64,000 nt of DNA from Podarcis muralis (lineage: Eukaryota), in the NCBI RefSeq assembly GCF_964188315.1, contig NC_135667.1, forward strand, positions 22,072,001-22,136,000, in the 5' to 3' direction. Within the stretch, counting starts at the first letter, position 1. Every line of letters starts with the position of its first letter. The position numbers and the translations under genes are program-made. The notes beneath the pieces are model-generated. The model was not told the DNA's origin and searched no databases. It saw only the letters and a list, made by a program, of their open reading frames with translations. Shown here piece after piece: positions 27,856-39,100 of this stretch.

Positions 27856-30105
27856 TCACAATTTTCTCCTTATTAAATGTTCCCTGTTGTTCAGCTCAGG
27901 CCTCAACACAATAAGATAACATTTTGGAAGATAGATGCAACCCAGAAGACCACCACTGGAGGCTAAGATAGCGAAGATCTCCACAGCAACCATGTATTTG
28001 CCCTTAGAGCTCATATAAGCTGGAATAAAGGATAACCAAACACTGCAAAACACCAACATGCTGAAAGTGATGAACTTGGCTTCATTGAAACTGTCAGGTA
28101 ACTTCCTGGCAAAAAAGGCCACAGTGAAGCTGGCAATTGCGAGGAAGCCCATGTAGCCCAGGACACTGTAAAACATAGCCACAGACCCTTCATTACATTC
28201 CAATACAACTTCTTTACTCACTGAGTACATGTCTACTTCTGGGAAGGGGGGAGAGGTTGCCAACCACACAGCACAGATACCAGTTTGAATAATAGAGCAG
28301 AAAAGCACAATGGAGTTGGCTAGCCTCTTCCCTACCCATTTCCTCATCCTAGATCCAGGTTTGGTGGCTAAGAAAGCCAGGACCACTGTGGTAGTTTTGG
28401 CCAACACACAAGAAACAGCCACAGAGAAGATGATGCTAAAAGCAGTTTGTCGGAGGAGACACATAATCTTCTGCGGTTTCCCAATGAATAGCAGTGCACA
28501 AAGGAAGCAGAGCAGGAGAGAGATTAGGAGAGTATAGGTGAGGTTCTGGTTGTTGGCTTTGACGATGGGAGTGTGATGGTGTTTTATAAATATTGCTAGC
28601 ACCAGAGCAGTGGTGAAAGAAAAGGCTAGAGCAAAACAGGTTAAGCCAAGTCCTAAGAGTCCCCCATATGACAAATAGGTTACAGATTTAGGAATACATA
28701 AATCCTGATTTTTGCTTGGATACTTTTCATCAGCACATTTAATGCAGTCATTCATGTCTGAAATAGAAAAGCCAAGATCTTTCTTTTACAAATACGCCAT
28801 AACATTTCAAGACGATGCATAAAAATGTTTCTTTCATGCAGTCAAATTCATATATGTTCAGTGCTGGTACTCTCAAATGTGGTTTAGAGCCTCAGTGATA
28901 TTAAGCAGCATTGTTAGTAGTAAAAACAATGATTTTTTTTAAGCAGTTTGAGATTACAGTGCCAACCTAAATGTGGCAGAAGACCCATGATCCTTAAAGG
29001 GGGAACTTTTGTTCATCCCCTGCAGAATCCAAGAACAGTTTAAAGGAAGACTGAAGTAAAAGCCTGTTGCAGTGCCATTCACAAAACATGAATGATAGCT
29101 GCTAAAGCAAAATATAGCTGCAAATTTCTCTGTTTATGGGCTTTTCTTTTTAAAAACAAAACATAACATAACAAAAAACAGGCAATTTGTAGTTTATAGC
29201 CAAGGAGCAACACTAATTTGAGAATCCCGATTTTGAGGTGTACCTCAATAACATCTTTGAATGGTGCTTTCTTTAGTTAGATATCGGCAGAGCAGCACTA
29301 GTAAAAATGCATTGCAATTTTAATTGAATTAATTTCTTTACAATCACCAGGTCAAAATGATACCACATGGACCAGATTCTCCCTAAGCAGCAGCCTCTTC
29401 TTAGATCCAATTCACCAAACCATTTAACAAAACCTATCACTCAAAGAACAAAAAAGTAACCTTGAAGCATTCACGGTTATAAGCATACTCCTCTGAATGA
29501 CACCCATTCTTTTGATAAACCTAAATAATATATTTCATACCTTCCTGATTGGAAATCTCTCCTTCTGGGCAAGGGATGCAATCATAGCAGCAAGATGCCT
29601 CTGACTCCCTCCCTTTCTTTCTAAAACCAGGATGGCAACTCTCTGTACAGACAGAAAGAGGCTGTGCCTAATGAGAATACATAGTTTGAAATTATTAACC
29701 ATATTTAGTCCCCGTCCCCCTACCCCAGGACTCTCTATAGCAAGAAGGCATTTCATTCATGTATGAATCGGTCTGATCTTACAAGTTGCAATTCAAAGCT
29801 TGTATATTTTGTAGTATTATGCCTATATTTATAACACATTATTTGTTTATTTTGTTGCTGTTTATTTTTCATGCCAAACTGTATAACAAAAGTAATATTG
29901 ATTAAGGTATACATGTAAACATAAGCATAAATTACCCCTCTCTGCCCCTTGAACAGTATTTCAGAATTCAAATTATATTTATTTAAAAGACAATGTATTT
30001 TACAAATAGGATTAACAACCTTTTGTTTAACATAATATTCAATATACTCCAATGCATCATATTATTTTTTCCTTTACAAGTTCATTGTTTTCTATAACAT
30101 TTAAT

Positions 30106-30143
<38 letters not shown>

Positions 30144-33100
30144 CTCTGTTATTTTTATCCACATTCACTTCTCGGATATTTGACAGATTTTGGAAAACTG
30201 ATTGGGTGATACCCAATTTGCTTAAATTTATTGTGCAGTACAGAAGGCTAGTTTCTAACATAATTGTTAAAAGAGAAATCACAATTGTTCACAGAAATTT
30301 GCTTTGCACTTCCACACAGAGAGGCAGTACTATTCAAAAATGGGAGATCTCCAAAGCTGCCAACAGTCAGATCCTACCTGATTAAACCACTTGTGCCATG
30401 TGATGGCATCTTCATTTATGGTCAGCACTCGGTCTGAAGGTCTGTCAGGATCCACAGTCCCAATTTTCACTCTGTGAAAAGTTTGATTTGAGGAAACTAT
30501 CCAATTGATAACATCAAATTCTGCTAATAATTCCAAATTATGGTCAAAAGAAATCCTGTTCCCAGCACTGTTGTTAAATGAGACACTTCTCAAAAATTGA
30601 TGGAGCTAGATTGGAAAAGAAAAGGCAACAATTTAATAATGTCTAGAGATGGATTTTGCAAATTAAGGTCTAATTGTGGCATCAGAATGCTGCCATGGAA
30701 TGGGGTGGGGGAATCGCTATGTGAATCCACAAAATTACATGAATGTAGGCTGCTCATGCTGTAAGTTTAGATACCACAAAGAAGAAAGACAGCCTGAAGA
30801 CGGTTCAGAAATTTCAGCTAGTGCAGAAATCAGTGGCCAGGTTGCTCAGTGGAGAAAGATGGTTTGAGCATATGGCCTGATTGCACAGGCTGCCAATTAG
30901 TTTCCAGTTCCGATTCAAAGTCTGTTTAATTGTTCAGGATCGCAATACCTCAACAACCACTTCTCTCTATAGGTAAAAAGGTAAAGGTAAAGGACCCCTG
31001 GATGGTTAAGTCCAGTCAAAGGTGACTATGATGTTGTGGCACTAATCTTGCTTTCAGGCCAAGGGAGCCGGTGTTTCTCCATAGACAGCGTTCTGGGTCA
31101 TGTGGCCAGCACGATGTCAGGGAACTGCCATCGCAGCCAGGAGTGGAGGAAAGGCTCCCAAGTGATGCCGGAGAAGGGCCCAGCAGGGAGAGAGGGGACT
31201 CATTGGTCGGGGAAGGAAATCAGCATTACACCAGGGAGAAAGGCGGGCAGAGGCGGGCTTCGGAGAGATGGCTCCAGGACTCTTCGCCAGAGACCAGCGG
31301 GGAGAGCACGGGTCCTCCGCTGCCCACACCCACCCTGCGCAGAAGACTTCCGTGCAGGGAGGCTAGGCGGAGACTATCCGTCAAGTAACTTTTATGTTGG
31401 AAGAAGTTCAGGAAATGCCCACTGACGGATTCTGCCAGTGACTGAGACAGCCGCAGCGTCAGGGCTGTCCAGCCAGGGAAAGGTTTATCCAGGCAACCTG
31501 GCCAAGAGTGGTGGCAACTTATGCACGAGCAACCCCCAATTCCCATTACAGCAATCCGTCAGTCCTTGACGTTGCTTGTGCACAACGACAAGACAGGCAG
31601 CACCATGAGTCAAACCGGTGGAGCAGGCGCCCAGGAGGTAGCAGCGGCAGTGCCAAATCTGGAGGAGAGAAACCGAGATTTGGAACGGCAGGTTGCTCTG
31701 TTGATGGCGCGGCTGGACGAAAGGCAGACTCAGGATGCCCAGGGGAGGCCCACCCCCATCGCAAGGAAGGTACCAGGACTGGTGCACAAGTTTGGGGGGA
31801 ACCCCCGAGACTATAATGCGTTCAGAACGGAGGTACAGTACACTTTGGAACTGCAGTATGATGACTTTGCTGACGATGGCGAGCGGGTGGCTTATGTTGT
31901 AGGGCATCTTCAAGATGCGGCCAGGGAATGGATCAGGCCCTTAATGGCAACGCAGAATGCTGCCTTAAAAGACCTTAGGAATTTTTTTGGCGCCATGGAT
32001 ACTATGTTTTCCAGTCAAGTGGAGCAAAGTGTGACTCGCCGGGAACTGATGGCTTGCAAGCAGGGGAGCCAATCAGTTAGAGAGTACTGGTCACGTTTTG
32101 CGATGATTATCCACAGACTTGGGTGGGATCTGGACTCGGAACCCGTGCAAATGTTGTTTGAGGAAGGATTAGCCCATCAGTGAAGGACGAGCTTTCCCGC
32201 GTGCCCCGCCCGCAACCGATGGATCAGCTGACCAAGGCTGTGCTTGCGATTGGTGTATGCCAAGAGGCGCGGGCTCAAGAGAAGCGGGAAGGGAGAGGAG
32301 AGCGTTGGCATGACAACCGCATTCCTGAAATACCGAGGCAGCCTTCCCAGCCAGTGGAGCCAATGGAAATCGATGGCGCACACGCGAGCGGGGTTTCAAA
32401 CTCCAGTGAAGTTCGCAAGAAGGAGGGAAGGGATGGGAAAACAGCCAAGAAGTGTTTCCTCTGCCAACAGCCAGGACATTTTGCCAGGGTCTGCCCTCAA
32501 AGAAAGGCTTGGCAAGGGATGGTGGGAGCAGCTGGCTGTGAGGAGGAGGGGGAAAAGGAGCAGGGGCAGGGAAATGCCAACGCTTGGCTGCCAATCATGG
32601 GGCACAGCAGCCAGGCCAGCAACCACTAAAAGTGCCCCAGCCAGACCCCCCCCAAAGCAGCTATAGCCATAGAGGTGGTACTAGAACTCCCAAACGGGCA
32701 CCCAGTTAAGGTGAAGGCGCTGCTGGATTCAGGCAGTTCTTGCAATTTTTTCAGCAAAGACTTCGCGCTAGAGCACCAGCTCCACCTACTGCCCCTAGAT
32801 TTTCCCTTGCAGGTGACCACTATTGATGGAAGAGAACTGCTGGGGGGGGGAGTGACGCACCAGACTCCACCCATGAGAATGAGGGTTTCCAGACACACAG
32901 AAACCATTGCCTTTCACGTAGCCACACTGGCAGGACCCCCAATCATATTAGGAATGAGCTGGCTGGCACTACATGATCCAGTAGTGGCATGGCATCAGCG
33001 GACAGTCACCTTTGGGTCAGCACACTGCTTGGAACACTGTCTGGGGGGGGGGGAACCCCGAGAATGGCCGTGGCCAGGGTGGCTGGGATGGCTGTGGAGC

Positions 33101-36100
33101 AGAAAGGGGAGGTACCACCACAATAAGCTGATCTGCAGGAGGTCTTCAGTGAGAAGGAAGCGGATAGACTACCCCCCATAGGCCCTTTGACTGCCAAATC
33201 AACTTGATCCCAGGGGCTCAGCTGCCAATGGGTAAGCTGTACGCCATGTCGGACCGGGAAATGCAGGAGTTAAGGAATTTTATTGATAAAAACCTGAAAA
33301 GAGGTTTCATAAGAGAATCAAAGGCGGTGGGGGGCAGCCCTGTGTTCTTTGTGGACAAGAAAGACACTAATCAGCCCAGGCTCGTTGTGGACTATAGGGC
33401 CGTCAATTTGGAGTCAGAACCCGTGACCTTCCCAATGCCCAGGATTGACGACATTTTAACACGAGTAAGGCAGGGAATTTTTTTTACGAAGCTGGACCTT
33501 CGGGGAGCATACAATTTGATTAGGATGAGGGAGGGGGATGAATGGAAGACCACCATGTTCACCCCTTTGGGGGCCTTTGAGTACTTAGTTATGCCTTTTG
33601 GATTACAGTCGGGCTCCGCCTGTTTTCAAGCTTTCATGCACCACGTGTTGGGGCCCCTGCTGTACAAGAACTGCGTGGCCTTTTAGGACGACGTGTTAAT
33701 CTATTCGCACGATGAGGAGCAACATGTCAGAGACGTCCGGGAAGTGCTAAAGAGACTACAGAAGCACCAGTTGTGGGTCAAGCTGGAGAAGTGCCAATTC
33801 CACGCCCGAGAGGTCGAGTTCCTGGGGTACAGGTTGTTGGACAAGGGCCTAGCTATGGACCCCGGCAAGATGCAGGCGGTTCTGGAATGGAAGACCCCCA
33901 AAACCTGGAAGGACGTGCAGAGGTTCCTAGGATTCAGCAACTTCTACCGGAAGTTCATTAAGAACTTTACCCACTTAACCGCGCCCATCACAGATTGTCT
34001 CAGTAGCAAAAGGAAATTCGTCTGGACAGAAGATGCACAGCAATCCTTTGAAAGGCTGAAGAAGGCGTTCGCTTCAGAAGAGCAGCTCCTGCACGTAGAT
34101 CTGCAGAAGCCAATGAGGCTGGAGACAGACGCGTCAAACTGAGCCGTCTCAGCGGTACTGCTACAGCCGGGACACCAGTCGAGCTGGAGACCGTGCGCCT
34201 TTTTCTCAAGGAAGCTGAGCAAGTCAGAGCAAAACTACACGGTGTATGACCGTGAACTGCTTGCGATTTATGCAGCATTTCGACGCTGGAGGCATTTGCT
34301 AATAGGGGCGCAGCACAAGATCCAGGTGTGTACGGACCATAAGAACCTGGAATACTGGAGGACTGTGTGGGTGCTCAACCAGAGACAGGTGCGATGGGCA
34401 CAGGAGTTCTCCAAGTTTTTCTTCGAGATTCGGTACGTGCCGGGAGAGGAAAACATAAGAGCAGATGCTCTCTCCCGGAAGCCGGAGTATATGGAAGGAG
34501 AAGGACCACCAGAAGTCAGACACGTGATCCCCGAGGGCTGATGGGTGTGTGGGGGAGTGTTGGTTGGGAGACAAGAACTAGCCGAACTTACGAGAGACGA
34601 CGAGTTCGCTCGAACCAAAATCAGGGAACTCAGGGACGCAGGGGAAAACCATGGCGGTTTTGAGGAGAAGGAAGGGGTACTGTATTACAAGGGAGCACTG
34701 TACGTACCGGGGGAGAACTTGAGGGGTAGGGTGCTCAAACAACTCCACGACAACCCGACGGCGGGGCATTTTGGTCAACACAAAACCATGTTGCTAGTCA
34801 CCAGGCAGTTCTGGTGGCCAAGAGTGAGGGAAGATGTACGGGAATATGTACAGGGTGCGACCGCTGCCAGCGGGCAAAGGGGGAGAGGGCTACACCCGCA
34901 GGGTTACTGGAACCCTTACCCACACCGGAAAGACCATGGGAGGTGGTGTCCATAGATTTCATGACCGATTTACCCAAGTCAAGGGGGAAAACGGCAGTCA
35001 TGGTGGTAGTCGATCTACTAACAAAAATGTGCCATTTCATCGCTTGCTTGCATGCGGTGACGGCAGAGGAAACAGCCAGGTTGTTTGTGGATCACATATT
35101 CAGGCTGTCGGGTTTTATCCGACCGCGGGAAACAATTTACTTCCCGGTTCTGGAAGAAGCTCATGAGCCTGCTGCAAGTCGAGGTGAGCTTCTCGACGGC
35201 GAGACACCCGGAGACCAACGGGCAAGCGGAAAGAGCAAGCAGTATACTCCAACAATACCTACGCTGTTACGTCAGCGAGAGGCAGAACGATTGGGTGGAG
35301 AAACTAGCGTTGGCCGAATTTGCATACAATAACGCTGAACATGTGTCCACGGGAATGAGCCCGTTTATGGCAAATTATGGGTGTCACCCCAGGGCATTCC
35401 CGGGGAGAGGGGAGGAAGGGTGGAGCGTACCGGCGGCAGAGCAGTTTGTGGAAGAAATGGAGGCCCTACACCTGCAACTTAAGATGAACTTGGAACGGGC
35501 CAAGGAAACTTACAAGAGGCAGGCAGACAAGCACCGTAGGGAAGGGGAAACCATACGGGTTGGGGATCGGGTGTGGTTGTCAACCCAAGGGTTACCTTTT
35601 AAGGGAGGGTGCAAGAAGTTGTGGCCAAAGCGACTAGGACCTTTTGAGGTAACACAGCAGGTGAACCCCGTGGCATTTAAGCTCAAGTTGCCGGCCAGCA
35701 TGAAATTACACCCGGTGTTCCATAGGTCTCTACTCTCACCATACAGGGAGGGATGGGAATTTCCAGGGCGAGAGGGAGAAGTCCCCATACACCCGCAGGT
35801 GGAGGAGAGGGAACTTCGCAGTCAAGCCACGGAAATACTCTATTCAAGATGGCGAGGGTGCCAGGTGGAGTACCTGGTGGCCTGGGAGGGCGAACCCGAG
35901 TCAGAAAACACGTGGGTTCCCGCGGAGGCCATCAGGGATGAGTATCTGAGGGAGGAGTTTCACAGCAGGTTTCCAAGGAAACCCAAACCACTAGCGAGAT
36001 TCTGGGAGGAGCAATTTGGAATCACAGAAGATGAAGAGGATTTTGTGGGTTTTTCGGCCTCCGAAGAGGAGGGAGGAGAGGTGTCAGAGGGAGAGGAATC

Positions 36101-39100
36101 GGATTGGGAAGGTTACCCCGCGGGAAGAGATAGGAGCAGGTGGGAAGCAGAGTTTGAATCATCAGAGGATGGGGGCAGTTCCTTCAGGGGATTCCCCGCA
36201 TCGTCGGCCAAGGAAAGGGACAAGATTGGGTCAAAGGAGCGGGCTGGAGGTGGAGGGGGTCCTGGGGGGGAGGTGGATGTCAGGGAACTGCCATCGCAGC
36301 CAGGAGTGGAGGAAAGGCTCCCAAGTGATGCCGGAGAAGGGCCCAGCAGGGAGAGAGGGGACTCATTGGTCGGGGAAGGAAATCAGCGTTACACCAGGGA
36401 GAAAGGCGGGCAGAGGCGGGCTTCAGAGAGATGGCTCCAGGACTCTTCGCCAGAGACCAGCGGGGAGAGCACGGGTCCTCCGCTGCCCACACCCACCCTG
36501 CGCAGAAGACTTCCGTGCAGGGAGGCTAGGCGGAGACTATCCGTCAAGGAACTTTTATGTTGGAAGAAGTTCAGGAAATGCCCACTGACGGATTCTGCCA
36601 GTGACTGAGACAGCCGCAGCGTCAGGGCTGTCCAGCCAGGGAAAGGTTTATCCAGGCAACCTGGCCAAGAGCGGCGGCAACTTACGCACGAGCAACCCCC
36701 AATTCCCATTACACACGACTAAGCCGCTTTTTGTGCAACGGAACACTGAAAGCAGAGCAGTGTACGGAAACGCCGTTTACCTTCCCACCGGAGCTGTAAC
36801 TATTTATGTACTTGCACTTTTTAGCGTGCTTTCAAACTGCTAGGTTGGCAGGAGCTAGGACCGAACAACAGGAGCTCACTCCATTGCGGGGATTCGAACC
36901 ACCGACCTTTTGACTGGCAAGCCCAAGAGGCTCAGTGGCTTAGAACACAGAACCACCTGCATCCAATATGAACCCTGAGAACATCATCTGAGGCCCTTCT
37001 TTGTGTTCCTCCTCCACGAGAGGTCCAGAAGATGGCAACATGAGAATAGGCCTTTGCTGCAGTGGTTCCCTGTTTGTGGAATGCGCTTGCCAGGGAGGTT
37101 TGACTGGTGCCTTCATTATATATCTTTAGGTGCCAGGCAAAAACATTCCTCTTCAACCAGACCTTTGGCTGATTGACACCCGATACCTTTTTAAATGTTT
37201 TGTGTGGGAATGTATTTTGTGGGTTTTTTTATATTGTAATTCTATGTTGTGAACTGCCCTGAGATCTACAGGTACAGGAAAGTATACAAATTTAATAAAT
37301 AATAAATTATAACAATTTGATAGCAGCCAACAACAACTATCTGAGAAAGTCATGTTATGCCATAAATTTTTACAGCTTTTTCTCACGGCTACAGAAAGGT
37401 TACTCCTAGCCTAGTTACAGAATGTCATTTGGATTGCCAAGCTCTGCAGCAAAGTTGCTATTCCATTTGCAGCTCCAAAAACCTCCCCAAGTATTTGTGC
37501 TTCATAAATTGCACATGTTTATAAACACCCTATACTTTTACTTTTCTATAGCTTTAATATGATTTGGATAGAAAGAGTGATGATAATGTGAGCACAGGAA
37601 GAATATGAGGAATAGGTTTCTACACTGTTTGGGGGCCTTTTGTAAGATCTAAGATACCATGCAAAGTTATATGATGATGTTCATGCCCCTACCTGCCACA
37701 TCTGGAGATTCTGAAATTTCAAAACCCTTCCATCCACTATTGCACGGTGTTTCACTCTAGACAAGGCCATGGCATGCAAAGCATGGGCCACAGCATAGAC
37801 AGCATTGTAGATGTTGTAACTGTGACCAGTCATGCTCACTTCAAAAAACGTTCCAGGAAGGTTCTGCAGTTTCTCATCACCAGTACAAATGTATCCATCT
37901 CCCCTCTCCAAAACAGAATTTGGGAATACACAGCCAAAAGCCTGCTGCCAGAAGTCTCTGATAAAACTGTCTCCTTTTGTCCTGGAAGGACTGATGCTCT
38001 CAACAAATGGCTTGAACGCTGGTAGGTCAGTGGTGTGAATTGTGAAAGAGAGAGCACCAAAGATTATATCTGTATCCCAATTCTTTTGAAAGGCCAATGA
38101 AGTGAGCTCCATCTGGGCTGTCAGTATCCACACTTTCCCTCTTGATATATTTGTCTCATGTTCCTCTTTTGACAGATATGGAAACCATCGCAGATACATC
38201 ATAGCATTAGATTCTCCATAAAACACTATTACATTGGCTTTGCTGTTCATGGCTTTAGCGTGTATTTTTGACCCGTGTTCCAAATTATCATCAAATTCAG
38301 TTAAAGAAGTTACAAAGGGGAGCTCTTCCATGAAGGCAAAACAAATACCTTTCTGGGAGAACAGTGGAACTGCAATTTGCAGAAATCTCTCTCCATTGTC
38401 TGTGTCTATAACAATGACCCCAATCCATATCCAACCAAAATGCAGTAATAAAGAGAGTATCCCTGAATACTGAAGGGTTTCCTTAGGGGTCATCTGGAAG
38501 AAATAAAGTCCCGGGGCTTTATCATTCATCACTGGAGCAGAACCATACACGAGCTGAACAGAGACAAAGATTTAAGAAGGAGAGATAAGTATAGTAATTT
38601 CTAAGCTGTAGTTTCATGTGTAGTGGTCAATTAAATCTGTGGTCTGGAACCTCAGGCCTAGAGATCAAATGCAGCTTTCTAGGCCTCTTTATCTGTTCCT
38701 CAGAACTCTCCCCAGGCCATACCAGTACAGGGCTGTCTTTACCCAGGGGTGCAAGGGGTACCCGGGCACCAAATTCTGGGGGGCGCCAAATATATATCTA
38801 CTATGTACCTGTCCCTCTCGATCGCTTGGCAGTTAAAAGCAATGAAACAAAAATCACCGCCCCCTGCCTCTGTCGCTCTGTTACTCCATAGTGTCAAATA
38901 TTCTTGACGAGTCAGGAAAGAAAAGCAGTTTTTCACCGCTGCATTGTTGTTACAGGTGAGCGAGTTCCTCCTTTACAAAAGTCAACAACTTTGGCTCCCC
39001 CCCCACCAAAAACTCCATAAAAGTTAGTATGGGGGCTCTGGGTGGATCTTTGCACCTCAGTGGCGCATATGCACCTGTCACTGGTCCTGCTTCTTACAAT

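Follow-up and report, generated by a model that had tools for sequence, protein, structure and literature searches.

Two FxGF motifs resembling those of LEDGF/HRP2 partners in a selected integrase tail that reads through the U3 of a Podarcis muralis chromovirus

The 64,000-nucleotide stretch of the Podarcis muralis genome analyzed here (the window; contig NC_135667.1, positions 22,072,001 to 22,136,000) contains a degraded Ty3/gypsy retrotransposon, a chromovirus of the Tf1/sushi type, whose Pol frame continues past the chromodomain, through the polypurine tract (PPT) and through the U3 region of the long terminal repeat (LTR) at the 3' end. Its copies demonstrate that the family encodes a selected C-terminal protein extension running through U3. 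What is new is the pair of motifs which this tail carries before the PPT, resembling those of host proteins that dock on LEDGF and HRP2; the overlap with the LTR itself is already known in chromoviruses. We lean, with modest confidence and on the strength of sequence comparison, towards the interpretation that the FxGF motifs of CDCA7L-type genes were copied, or arrived at by convergence, in a lizard Ty3/gypsy clade, which would hijack LEDGF/HRP2 as an integration tether and bears a second putative chromatin module inside its LTR promoter.

Results

The frame is free of stops from position 35061 to a TGA at 36606-36608 (515 amino acids stop to stop; all features given here lie on the forward strand unless stated otherwise). 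According to Pfam it encodes the end of the integrase core (rve), an SH3_Tf2-1 (GPF) domain (35562-35747) and a chromodomain (amino acids 258-303; 35832-35969), followed by a tail of 212 codons, 103 of them up to and across the PPT (36264-36277, crossed in frame) and 109 within the 3' LTR (36278-36713), whose coding U3 spans about 36278-36583. A preliminary description of the window had proposed a frame with no stop after the chromodomain that crosses the PPT, enters the LTR at nucleotide 2, continues for 109 codons and stops about 22 nt past the predicted transcription start. Each of these points holds: the entry codon is a GTC at 36279, and the primer-binding site (PBS; 31553-31563) is complementary to LTR nucleotides 307-317, an 11-nt match which would mark a Tf1-type self-primer and which begins in the 3' LTR at 36584, the stop following 22 nt beyond. 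This self-primer copy (36584-36594), the putative transcription start, is itself coding, and the stop would fall inside R. The same description had suggested that an acidic/basic domain may be encoded within the LTR. The basic end does lie in U3, where it is preceded by a linker of variable sequence and nothing else is encoded; the acidic stretch precedes the PPT.

Copies were collected from the same genome in two ways. In a DNA search the best 40 of 2871 candidates were scored and 30 loci taken, namely the window copy, its 5' LTR and 28 others; in a protein search the best 147 of 8517 candidates were scored, reaching down to 62% identity and mostly stop-free. Sixty unique, naturally open tails were drawn from 99 loci, with 13 duplicates and 26 loci lacking an open tail. 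Of the 28 DNA-selected 3' ends, 27 share the codon at which the frame stops, and the remaining one has a deletion there. The sole U3 indel common to sister copies is a loss of 9 nt, while the 1-2 nt indels found in multiple copies fall after the stop, as a coding U3 was expected to show in the preliminary description.

The possibility of a neutral read-through, or of an accident confined to single copies, is extremely unlikely. Such an explanation can point to the stops and frameshifts that break the tail in 16 of the 28 DNA-selected copies (it is fully open in 12), six of which carry +1/+2 slips in the G-run of the PPT, but these six slips sit on non-sister tips of the tree. It is refuted, and the tail is recognized as a selected protein, because the position of the stop, the in-frame indels and the ratio of nonsynonymous to synonymous change (omega) all indicate selection. 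In several older subfamilies the G-run is interrupted, as their translations suggest.

Pairwise omega was calculated for 29 DNA-selected copies from those 324 of the 406 pairs that differ by at least 8%, with private variants masked. It is 0.07 at the end of the integrase core, 0.13 in the chromodomain, 0.24 from the chromodomain to the PPT (confidence interval, CI, 0.15-0.35) and 0.44 in the whole U3 (CI 0.28-0.67), where the proximal and distal parts give 0.69 and 0.24; beyond the stop it is 0.97. Within U3 the two shifted plus frames yield 0.93 and 0.83, and the antisense frame with the same third positions yields 0.51. The distal U3 columns with shared variants number 23 at third positions versus 16 and 11 at the others. 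A GY codon model was applied to the 60 open frames, a set which was picked for open frames, partly via the protein search, and thus leans to low dN; it gives 0.22 for the chromodomain, 0.29 and 0.33 for motifs 1 and 2 (described below), 0.72 between the motifs, 0.76 after motif 2, 0.67 and 0.31 for proximal and distal U3, and 0.15 for the last 8 codons. Likelihood ratio tests against omega=1 under the MGK model are significant in every segment except the PPT and the linker before it (p 3e-11 for motif 1, 3e-12 for motif 2 and 1e-24 for distal U3). The codon constraint which the preliminary description had singled out for examination is therefore present in both the pairwise and the model-based analyses. 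It is patchy, comprising the two pre-PPT motifs, linkers such as the weakly constrained proximal U3 (36279-36431; omega 0.67-0.69), and the conserved Arg-rich end in distal U3 (36492-36605; omega about 0.3), which contains an L-C-W motif.

A subtler explanation would confine the function to the part before the PPT, U3 having been opened to translation by the loss of a stop and its conservation being that of promoter and self-primer DNA. The weak constraint of proximal U3, whose CI reaches 1.16 among the DNA-selected copies, would agree with it, as would the last codons, which overlap both a T-rich, TATA-like stretch and the self-primer, and the nearness of the stop to the self-primer across families. 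Its probability is nevertheless low, as distal U3 combines an omega of 0.24-0.31 with the third-position excess, synonymous codons turn over (up to 5 at invariant tail residues), and a basic x-C-W end is kept in families whose tails otherwise cannot be aligned.

FxGF occurs twice in all 60 open tails, with F, G and F invariant, x variable and the codons changing synonymously; when the tail was shuffled 200000 times, two or more occurrences arose 142 times. Each motif consists of an aromatic-ended, putatively helical stretch, an acidic Ser/Thr linker of 8-9 amino acids, and FxGF. In motif 1 (35994-36053) a predicted helix and an 8-residue acidic linker lead to E-D-F-V-G-F, and in motif 2 (36141-36194) a W..F stretch and a 9-residue Ser/acid linker lead to S-S-F-R-G-F. 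The linkers hold 5 and 3 D/E and 1 and 4 S/T residues, respectively, together with one CK2-type site each, the pattern of such sites being S/TxxD/E. The TIM, which binds TFIIS N-terminal domains (TNDs), is defined by an obligate amphipathic helix, an acidic linker of 8-16 amino acids and FxGF, the last being essential for LEDGF/HRP2 binders (PMC9987994), and the related IBM, bound by the integrase-binding domain (IBD), has the consensus S/E-x-F-x-G-F (PMC7337902). Both window motifs fit this consensus and their linkers fall within this range; position -2 is E in 49 of the 60 tails in motif 1 and S in 58 of the 60 in motif 2. The motifs, the most telling feature of the tail, do not appear in the preliminary description. 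FxFG, the nucleoporin repeat, was rejected as a counterpart, its residue order being different.

The tail matches no Pfam family and is predicted to be disordered, as is the region that harbors TIMs and IBMs in host proteins: an AlphaFold model from a 14-row alignment has a mean pLDDT of 53 and a pTM of 0.15, and forms a low-confidence chain except for helices just before motif 1 (helix 9-15, pLDDT about 62, in a low-confidence model) and in the basic end (36543-36575). A complex prediction of motif 1 (34 amino acids) with the Podarcis LEDGF IBD (289-376) scored 0.23 against a mark of 0.34; having been run without alignments and with controls not folded, by a method unproven on peptides and disordered chains, it is evidence neither way. 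Solved LEDGF-TIM fusions exist (6EMO, 5YI9, 6EMP, 6EMQ and 6EMR), so that a passing score would partly reflect likeness to them. The ESM Atlas returned no usable match.

A tree of the integrase-chromodomain region from 23 hand-picked rows, one of them 16% filled, groups all 15 rows with FxGF together (100/99), at integrase identities as low as 63%; each of the 15 keeps one FxGF or more, and the sister family and six outgroups have none. Among 95 Pol proteins 65 have a chromodomain match, and FxGF in an acidic tail context is found solely in three Podarcis proteins. The non-Podarcis chromodomain-bearing Pol proteins end at most 73 amino acids past the chromodomain in 56 of 61 cases (median 22), and the other 5 seem chimeric. 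A profile search of 1.84 billion representatives produced 4 matches, all apparently pieces of the same clade, in a set where eukaryotic repeat proteins are possibly underrepresented, and which thus does not set the clade's extent beyond lacertids. Three public gene models (P0129, P0130 and P0128) fuse pieces of the element to LINE, V2R and Gla-domain-like proteins, and are probably annotation chimeras.

Entry into the LTR is apparently of a known kind and common in this genome. Of nine further loci of the clade tried, four lacked an LTR pair in range and five are full-length elements that enter the LTR too. In four of the latter (L148, L163, L164 and L169) almost the whole U3 is taken up by the frame, whose stop lies at +24, +36, -5 and -5 nt relative to where the self-primer starts; in the fifth (L167), likely a broken copy, it runs beyond the LTR end. 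A second, very young chromovirus family, without FxGF, is represented by L116 (G000:C10:47981300-47988600) and L117. Its integrase identity is 46-47%, the two LTRs of a pair are 100% identical, and it has at least 151 matches. Its Pol enters the 3' LTR for about 113-118 codons and stops some 36-37 nt before the self-primer, so that across families the stop falls within -37 to +36 nt of it. The tail of this second family ends in R-R-S-A-R-L, an HMGN-like nucleosome motif, and endings similar to R-R-S-x-R are seen in several tails from outside lizards as well.

The Podarcis genome itself has two genes with a LEDGF domain, as well as counterparts of the motifs. A LEDGF exon in it is 100% identical to a Podarcis muralis protein in UniRef. 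On the same strand and upstream of zf-4CXXC_R1 exons lie the motifs of a CDCA7L-like gene with two FxGF and a CDCA7-like gene with one (L174, L175 on G000:C12; L179 on G000:C1), their assignment to exons being inferred. In these exon-like frames of the two genes L-A-D-I-F is followed by 8 residues and FIGF, L-R-E-I-F by 10 and FEGF, and I-A-K-I-F by 8 and FCGF. The elements show W-E-E-Q-F, 8 residues and FVGF, and, in the deepest branch, L-R-E-I-F, 9 residues and FFGF, so that L-R-E-I-F is common to one host motif and the deepest-branching element. The DNA alignment between the host CDCA7L-like motif and that of the deepest branch is short and gapped, and the sequences leave two origins for the element's motifs, copying from host CDCA7L-type genes or convergence on them.

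No RNA run containing the window stretch was found in a search of sequencing runs, and reads on the window copy are of low depth, on both strands, with no visible start or end. In a sister subfamily each of 4 RNA runs covers all 30 bins, and in the three bulk runs first mates are mostly on the minus strand (in 30, 30 and 29 bins, respectively), indicating sense RNA if the libraries were stranded in the usual way. None of the RNA reads on the window copy or the sister subfamily marks a poly(A) or 3' end of the transcript, and AATAAA is found near the frame end in none of the 60 frames.

The element spans 31115-36713, flanked by a 5-bp target-site duplication CACGA (31110-31114 and 36714-36718). 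Its two LTRs, of 436 bp with TG..CA ends, differ at 6 positions; in the 5' LTR (31115-31550) a TAA at 31386 interrupts the frame which the 3' LTR keeps open. Gag, protease, reverse transcriptase, RNase H and the N-terminal and core part of integrase are identified by Pfam between 31446 and 35105 (the extent of the Pfam-positive stop-to-stop frames). This copy is dead, several stops and frameshifts splitting gag and pol; its open frame is cut off from the upstream pol, with which it loses register near 35105, and roughly its first 16 residues do not line up with those of relatives. The insertion site is in a class C G protein-coupled receptor gene, vomeronasal type-2-like, of a tandem cluster (window 27859-38571, minus strand); there the element sits between two ANF_receptor exons, antisense to them. 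The insertion target is an abundant short repeat, which we take to be Sauria-SINE-like, and very deep RNA reads cover 36728-36900.

Discussion

The Pol frame of this clade carries a selected, predicted-disordered tail that passes through the PPT and U3 and probably serves the integration complex. We think it probable that the tail stays on the integrase and that its motifs dock on the integrase-binding domain of LEDGF/HRP2, steering integration to H3K36-methylated, transcribed chromatin. In this mechanism the tail would be retained on the mature integrase, the two helix-acidic-FxGF motifs would bind the TFIIS-N-terminal (integrase-binding) domain, phosphorylation of the linkers by CK2 could raise the affinity, and LEDGF/HRP2 would bring the complex to chromatin marked by H3K36me2/3, beside or in place of the chromodomain. 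With less confidence, the Arg-rich end encoded by U3 may be a nuclear-import or a nucleosome/DNA-binding module, in a position like that of the CR motif which plant CRM elements encode in their LTR.

Acidic stretches with W or F are typical of activation domains, which raises a different, tentative and rather unlikely interpretation, whereby the tail is selected as a protein but its acidic-aromatic motifs have a different binding partner or form an activation or histone-chaperone region. Candidate partners are the TNDs of TFIIS, ELOA, MED26 and PNUTS, or the tail might be released by the protease as an LTR transactivator. Other TNDs are indeed also bound by TIMs (PMC9987994), and motif 1 tolerates L or M at its first F in a young subfamily. 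Nonetheless, the invariant G-F, the spacing of 8-10 amino acids between helix and motif, and a layout nearly identical to that of the host CDCA7L/CDCA7-like motifs exceed the specificity that an activation domain would require, and FxGF is the LEDGF/HRP2-selective part of the TIM (PMC9987994).

Several observations weigh against the LEDGF/HRP2 interpretation. Binding to LEDGF/HRP2 and a bias of insertion are predictions. The motifs are short, and they lie within acidic sequence of low complexity, a setting in which aromatic residues are typical of activation domains too. At position -2 motif 1 has G in 10 of the 60 tails and R in one, and it reads L/M-E-G-F in the young, dispersed subfamily as well as in three Podarcis proteins of UniRef. 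The AlphaFold helix before motif 2 is just 3 residues long, two families retain a single FxGF, and searches of the PDB with the motifs, by profile and by single sequence, gave no match at E<=10. To these may be added the lean of the 60-frame set to low dN, and the sister-subfamily reads, which pass both LTR ends into the flanks, so that the RNA signal is partly host read-through. Finally, one contig (C20; 30.4 Mb, 2% of the genome), which may be a W-like non-recombining chromosome, holds 23 of the best 40 DNA matches, plus many copies of other families; this clustering of older copies is a retention pattern that neither shows nor simply fits gene-body targeting.

By its domain order (gag, protease, reverse transcriptase, RNase H, integrase and C-terminal chromodomain), its PPT, TG..CA LTRs, 5-bp target-site duplication and a PBS which by sequence is self-priming (10-11 nt in 7 other full-length elements), the element resembles the Tf1/sushi chromoviruses of vertebrates (PMC4600332, which also treats their self-priming mechanism, and PMC3601003). 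It differs from this group in its tail, 212 amino acids as opposed to mostly 73 or fewer in non-Podarcis chromodomain Pol. The preliminary description had likened the overlap to HIV nef and MMTV sag and proposed an accessory C-terminal domain. Coding sequence does overlap U3 in all of these, but nef and sag are separate accessory ORFs, whereas here the tail is in frame and continuous with the integrase, with no env between. The selected extension is hence real, yet it is the integrase's own tail, and the analogy is not supported. The closer parallels are plant CRM group A and the Galadriel elements Bingo1-4/7, in which the gag-pol frame likewise crosses the PPT into the 3' LTR and a putative role in targeting falls to the end encoded there (PMC3059260, PMC3605345). 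In CRM, however, the CR motif replaces the chromodomain and the PBS matches tRNA-Met, while the lizard element has a true chromodomain upstream of the PPT, self-primes, and carries FxGF before the PPT.

The combination of a putative helix, an acidic Ser/Thr linker of 8-9 amino acids and (S/E)xFxGF is that of the host TIM/IBM proteins JPO2/CDCA7L, IWS1, KMT2A, PogZ, ASK and DPF3a (PMC9987994, PMC7337902). With two motifs in one disordered region the element is like JPO2, itself among the proteins with two TIMs (PMC9987994), the difference being that the motifs here sit on a retrotransposon integrase and are known from sequence. Lentiviral integrase would share with it both the tether and the predicted outcome, integration in transcribed genes (PMC9987994). 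The lizard element represents a different retroelement lineage, and a linear TIM copy would stand in it for a folded structure. For comparison, the integrase of HIV-1 binds via its folded catalytic-domain dimer.

The literature searched, with subscription papers, repeat databases and supplements outside its scope, showed no TIM-like motif in a retrotransposon integrase and no integration tether of a vertebrate Ty3/gypsy element. Among the tethers known elsewhere are BET proteins for MLV and Sir4 for Ty5. LEDGF for lentiviruses (PMC9987994) and AC40 for Ty1 complete the list.

Conclusions

Integration tethers are known for few elements, and a TIM in an integrase tail names a host partner that can be tested. 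Young families with and without the motifs reside in one genome and offer a built-in comparison for insertion bias. If the proposal is true, linear-motif mimicry would constitute a second route to the lentiviral cofactor, and a mobile element and the host's own regulators of transcription would be rivals for the LEDGF/HRP2 domain. It would also show that whole U3 promoters can code for protein across several families of vertebrate chromoviruses.

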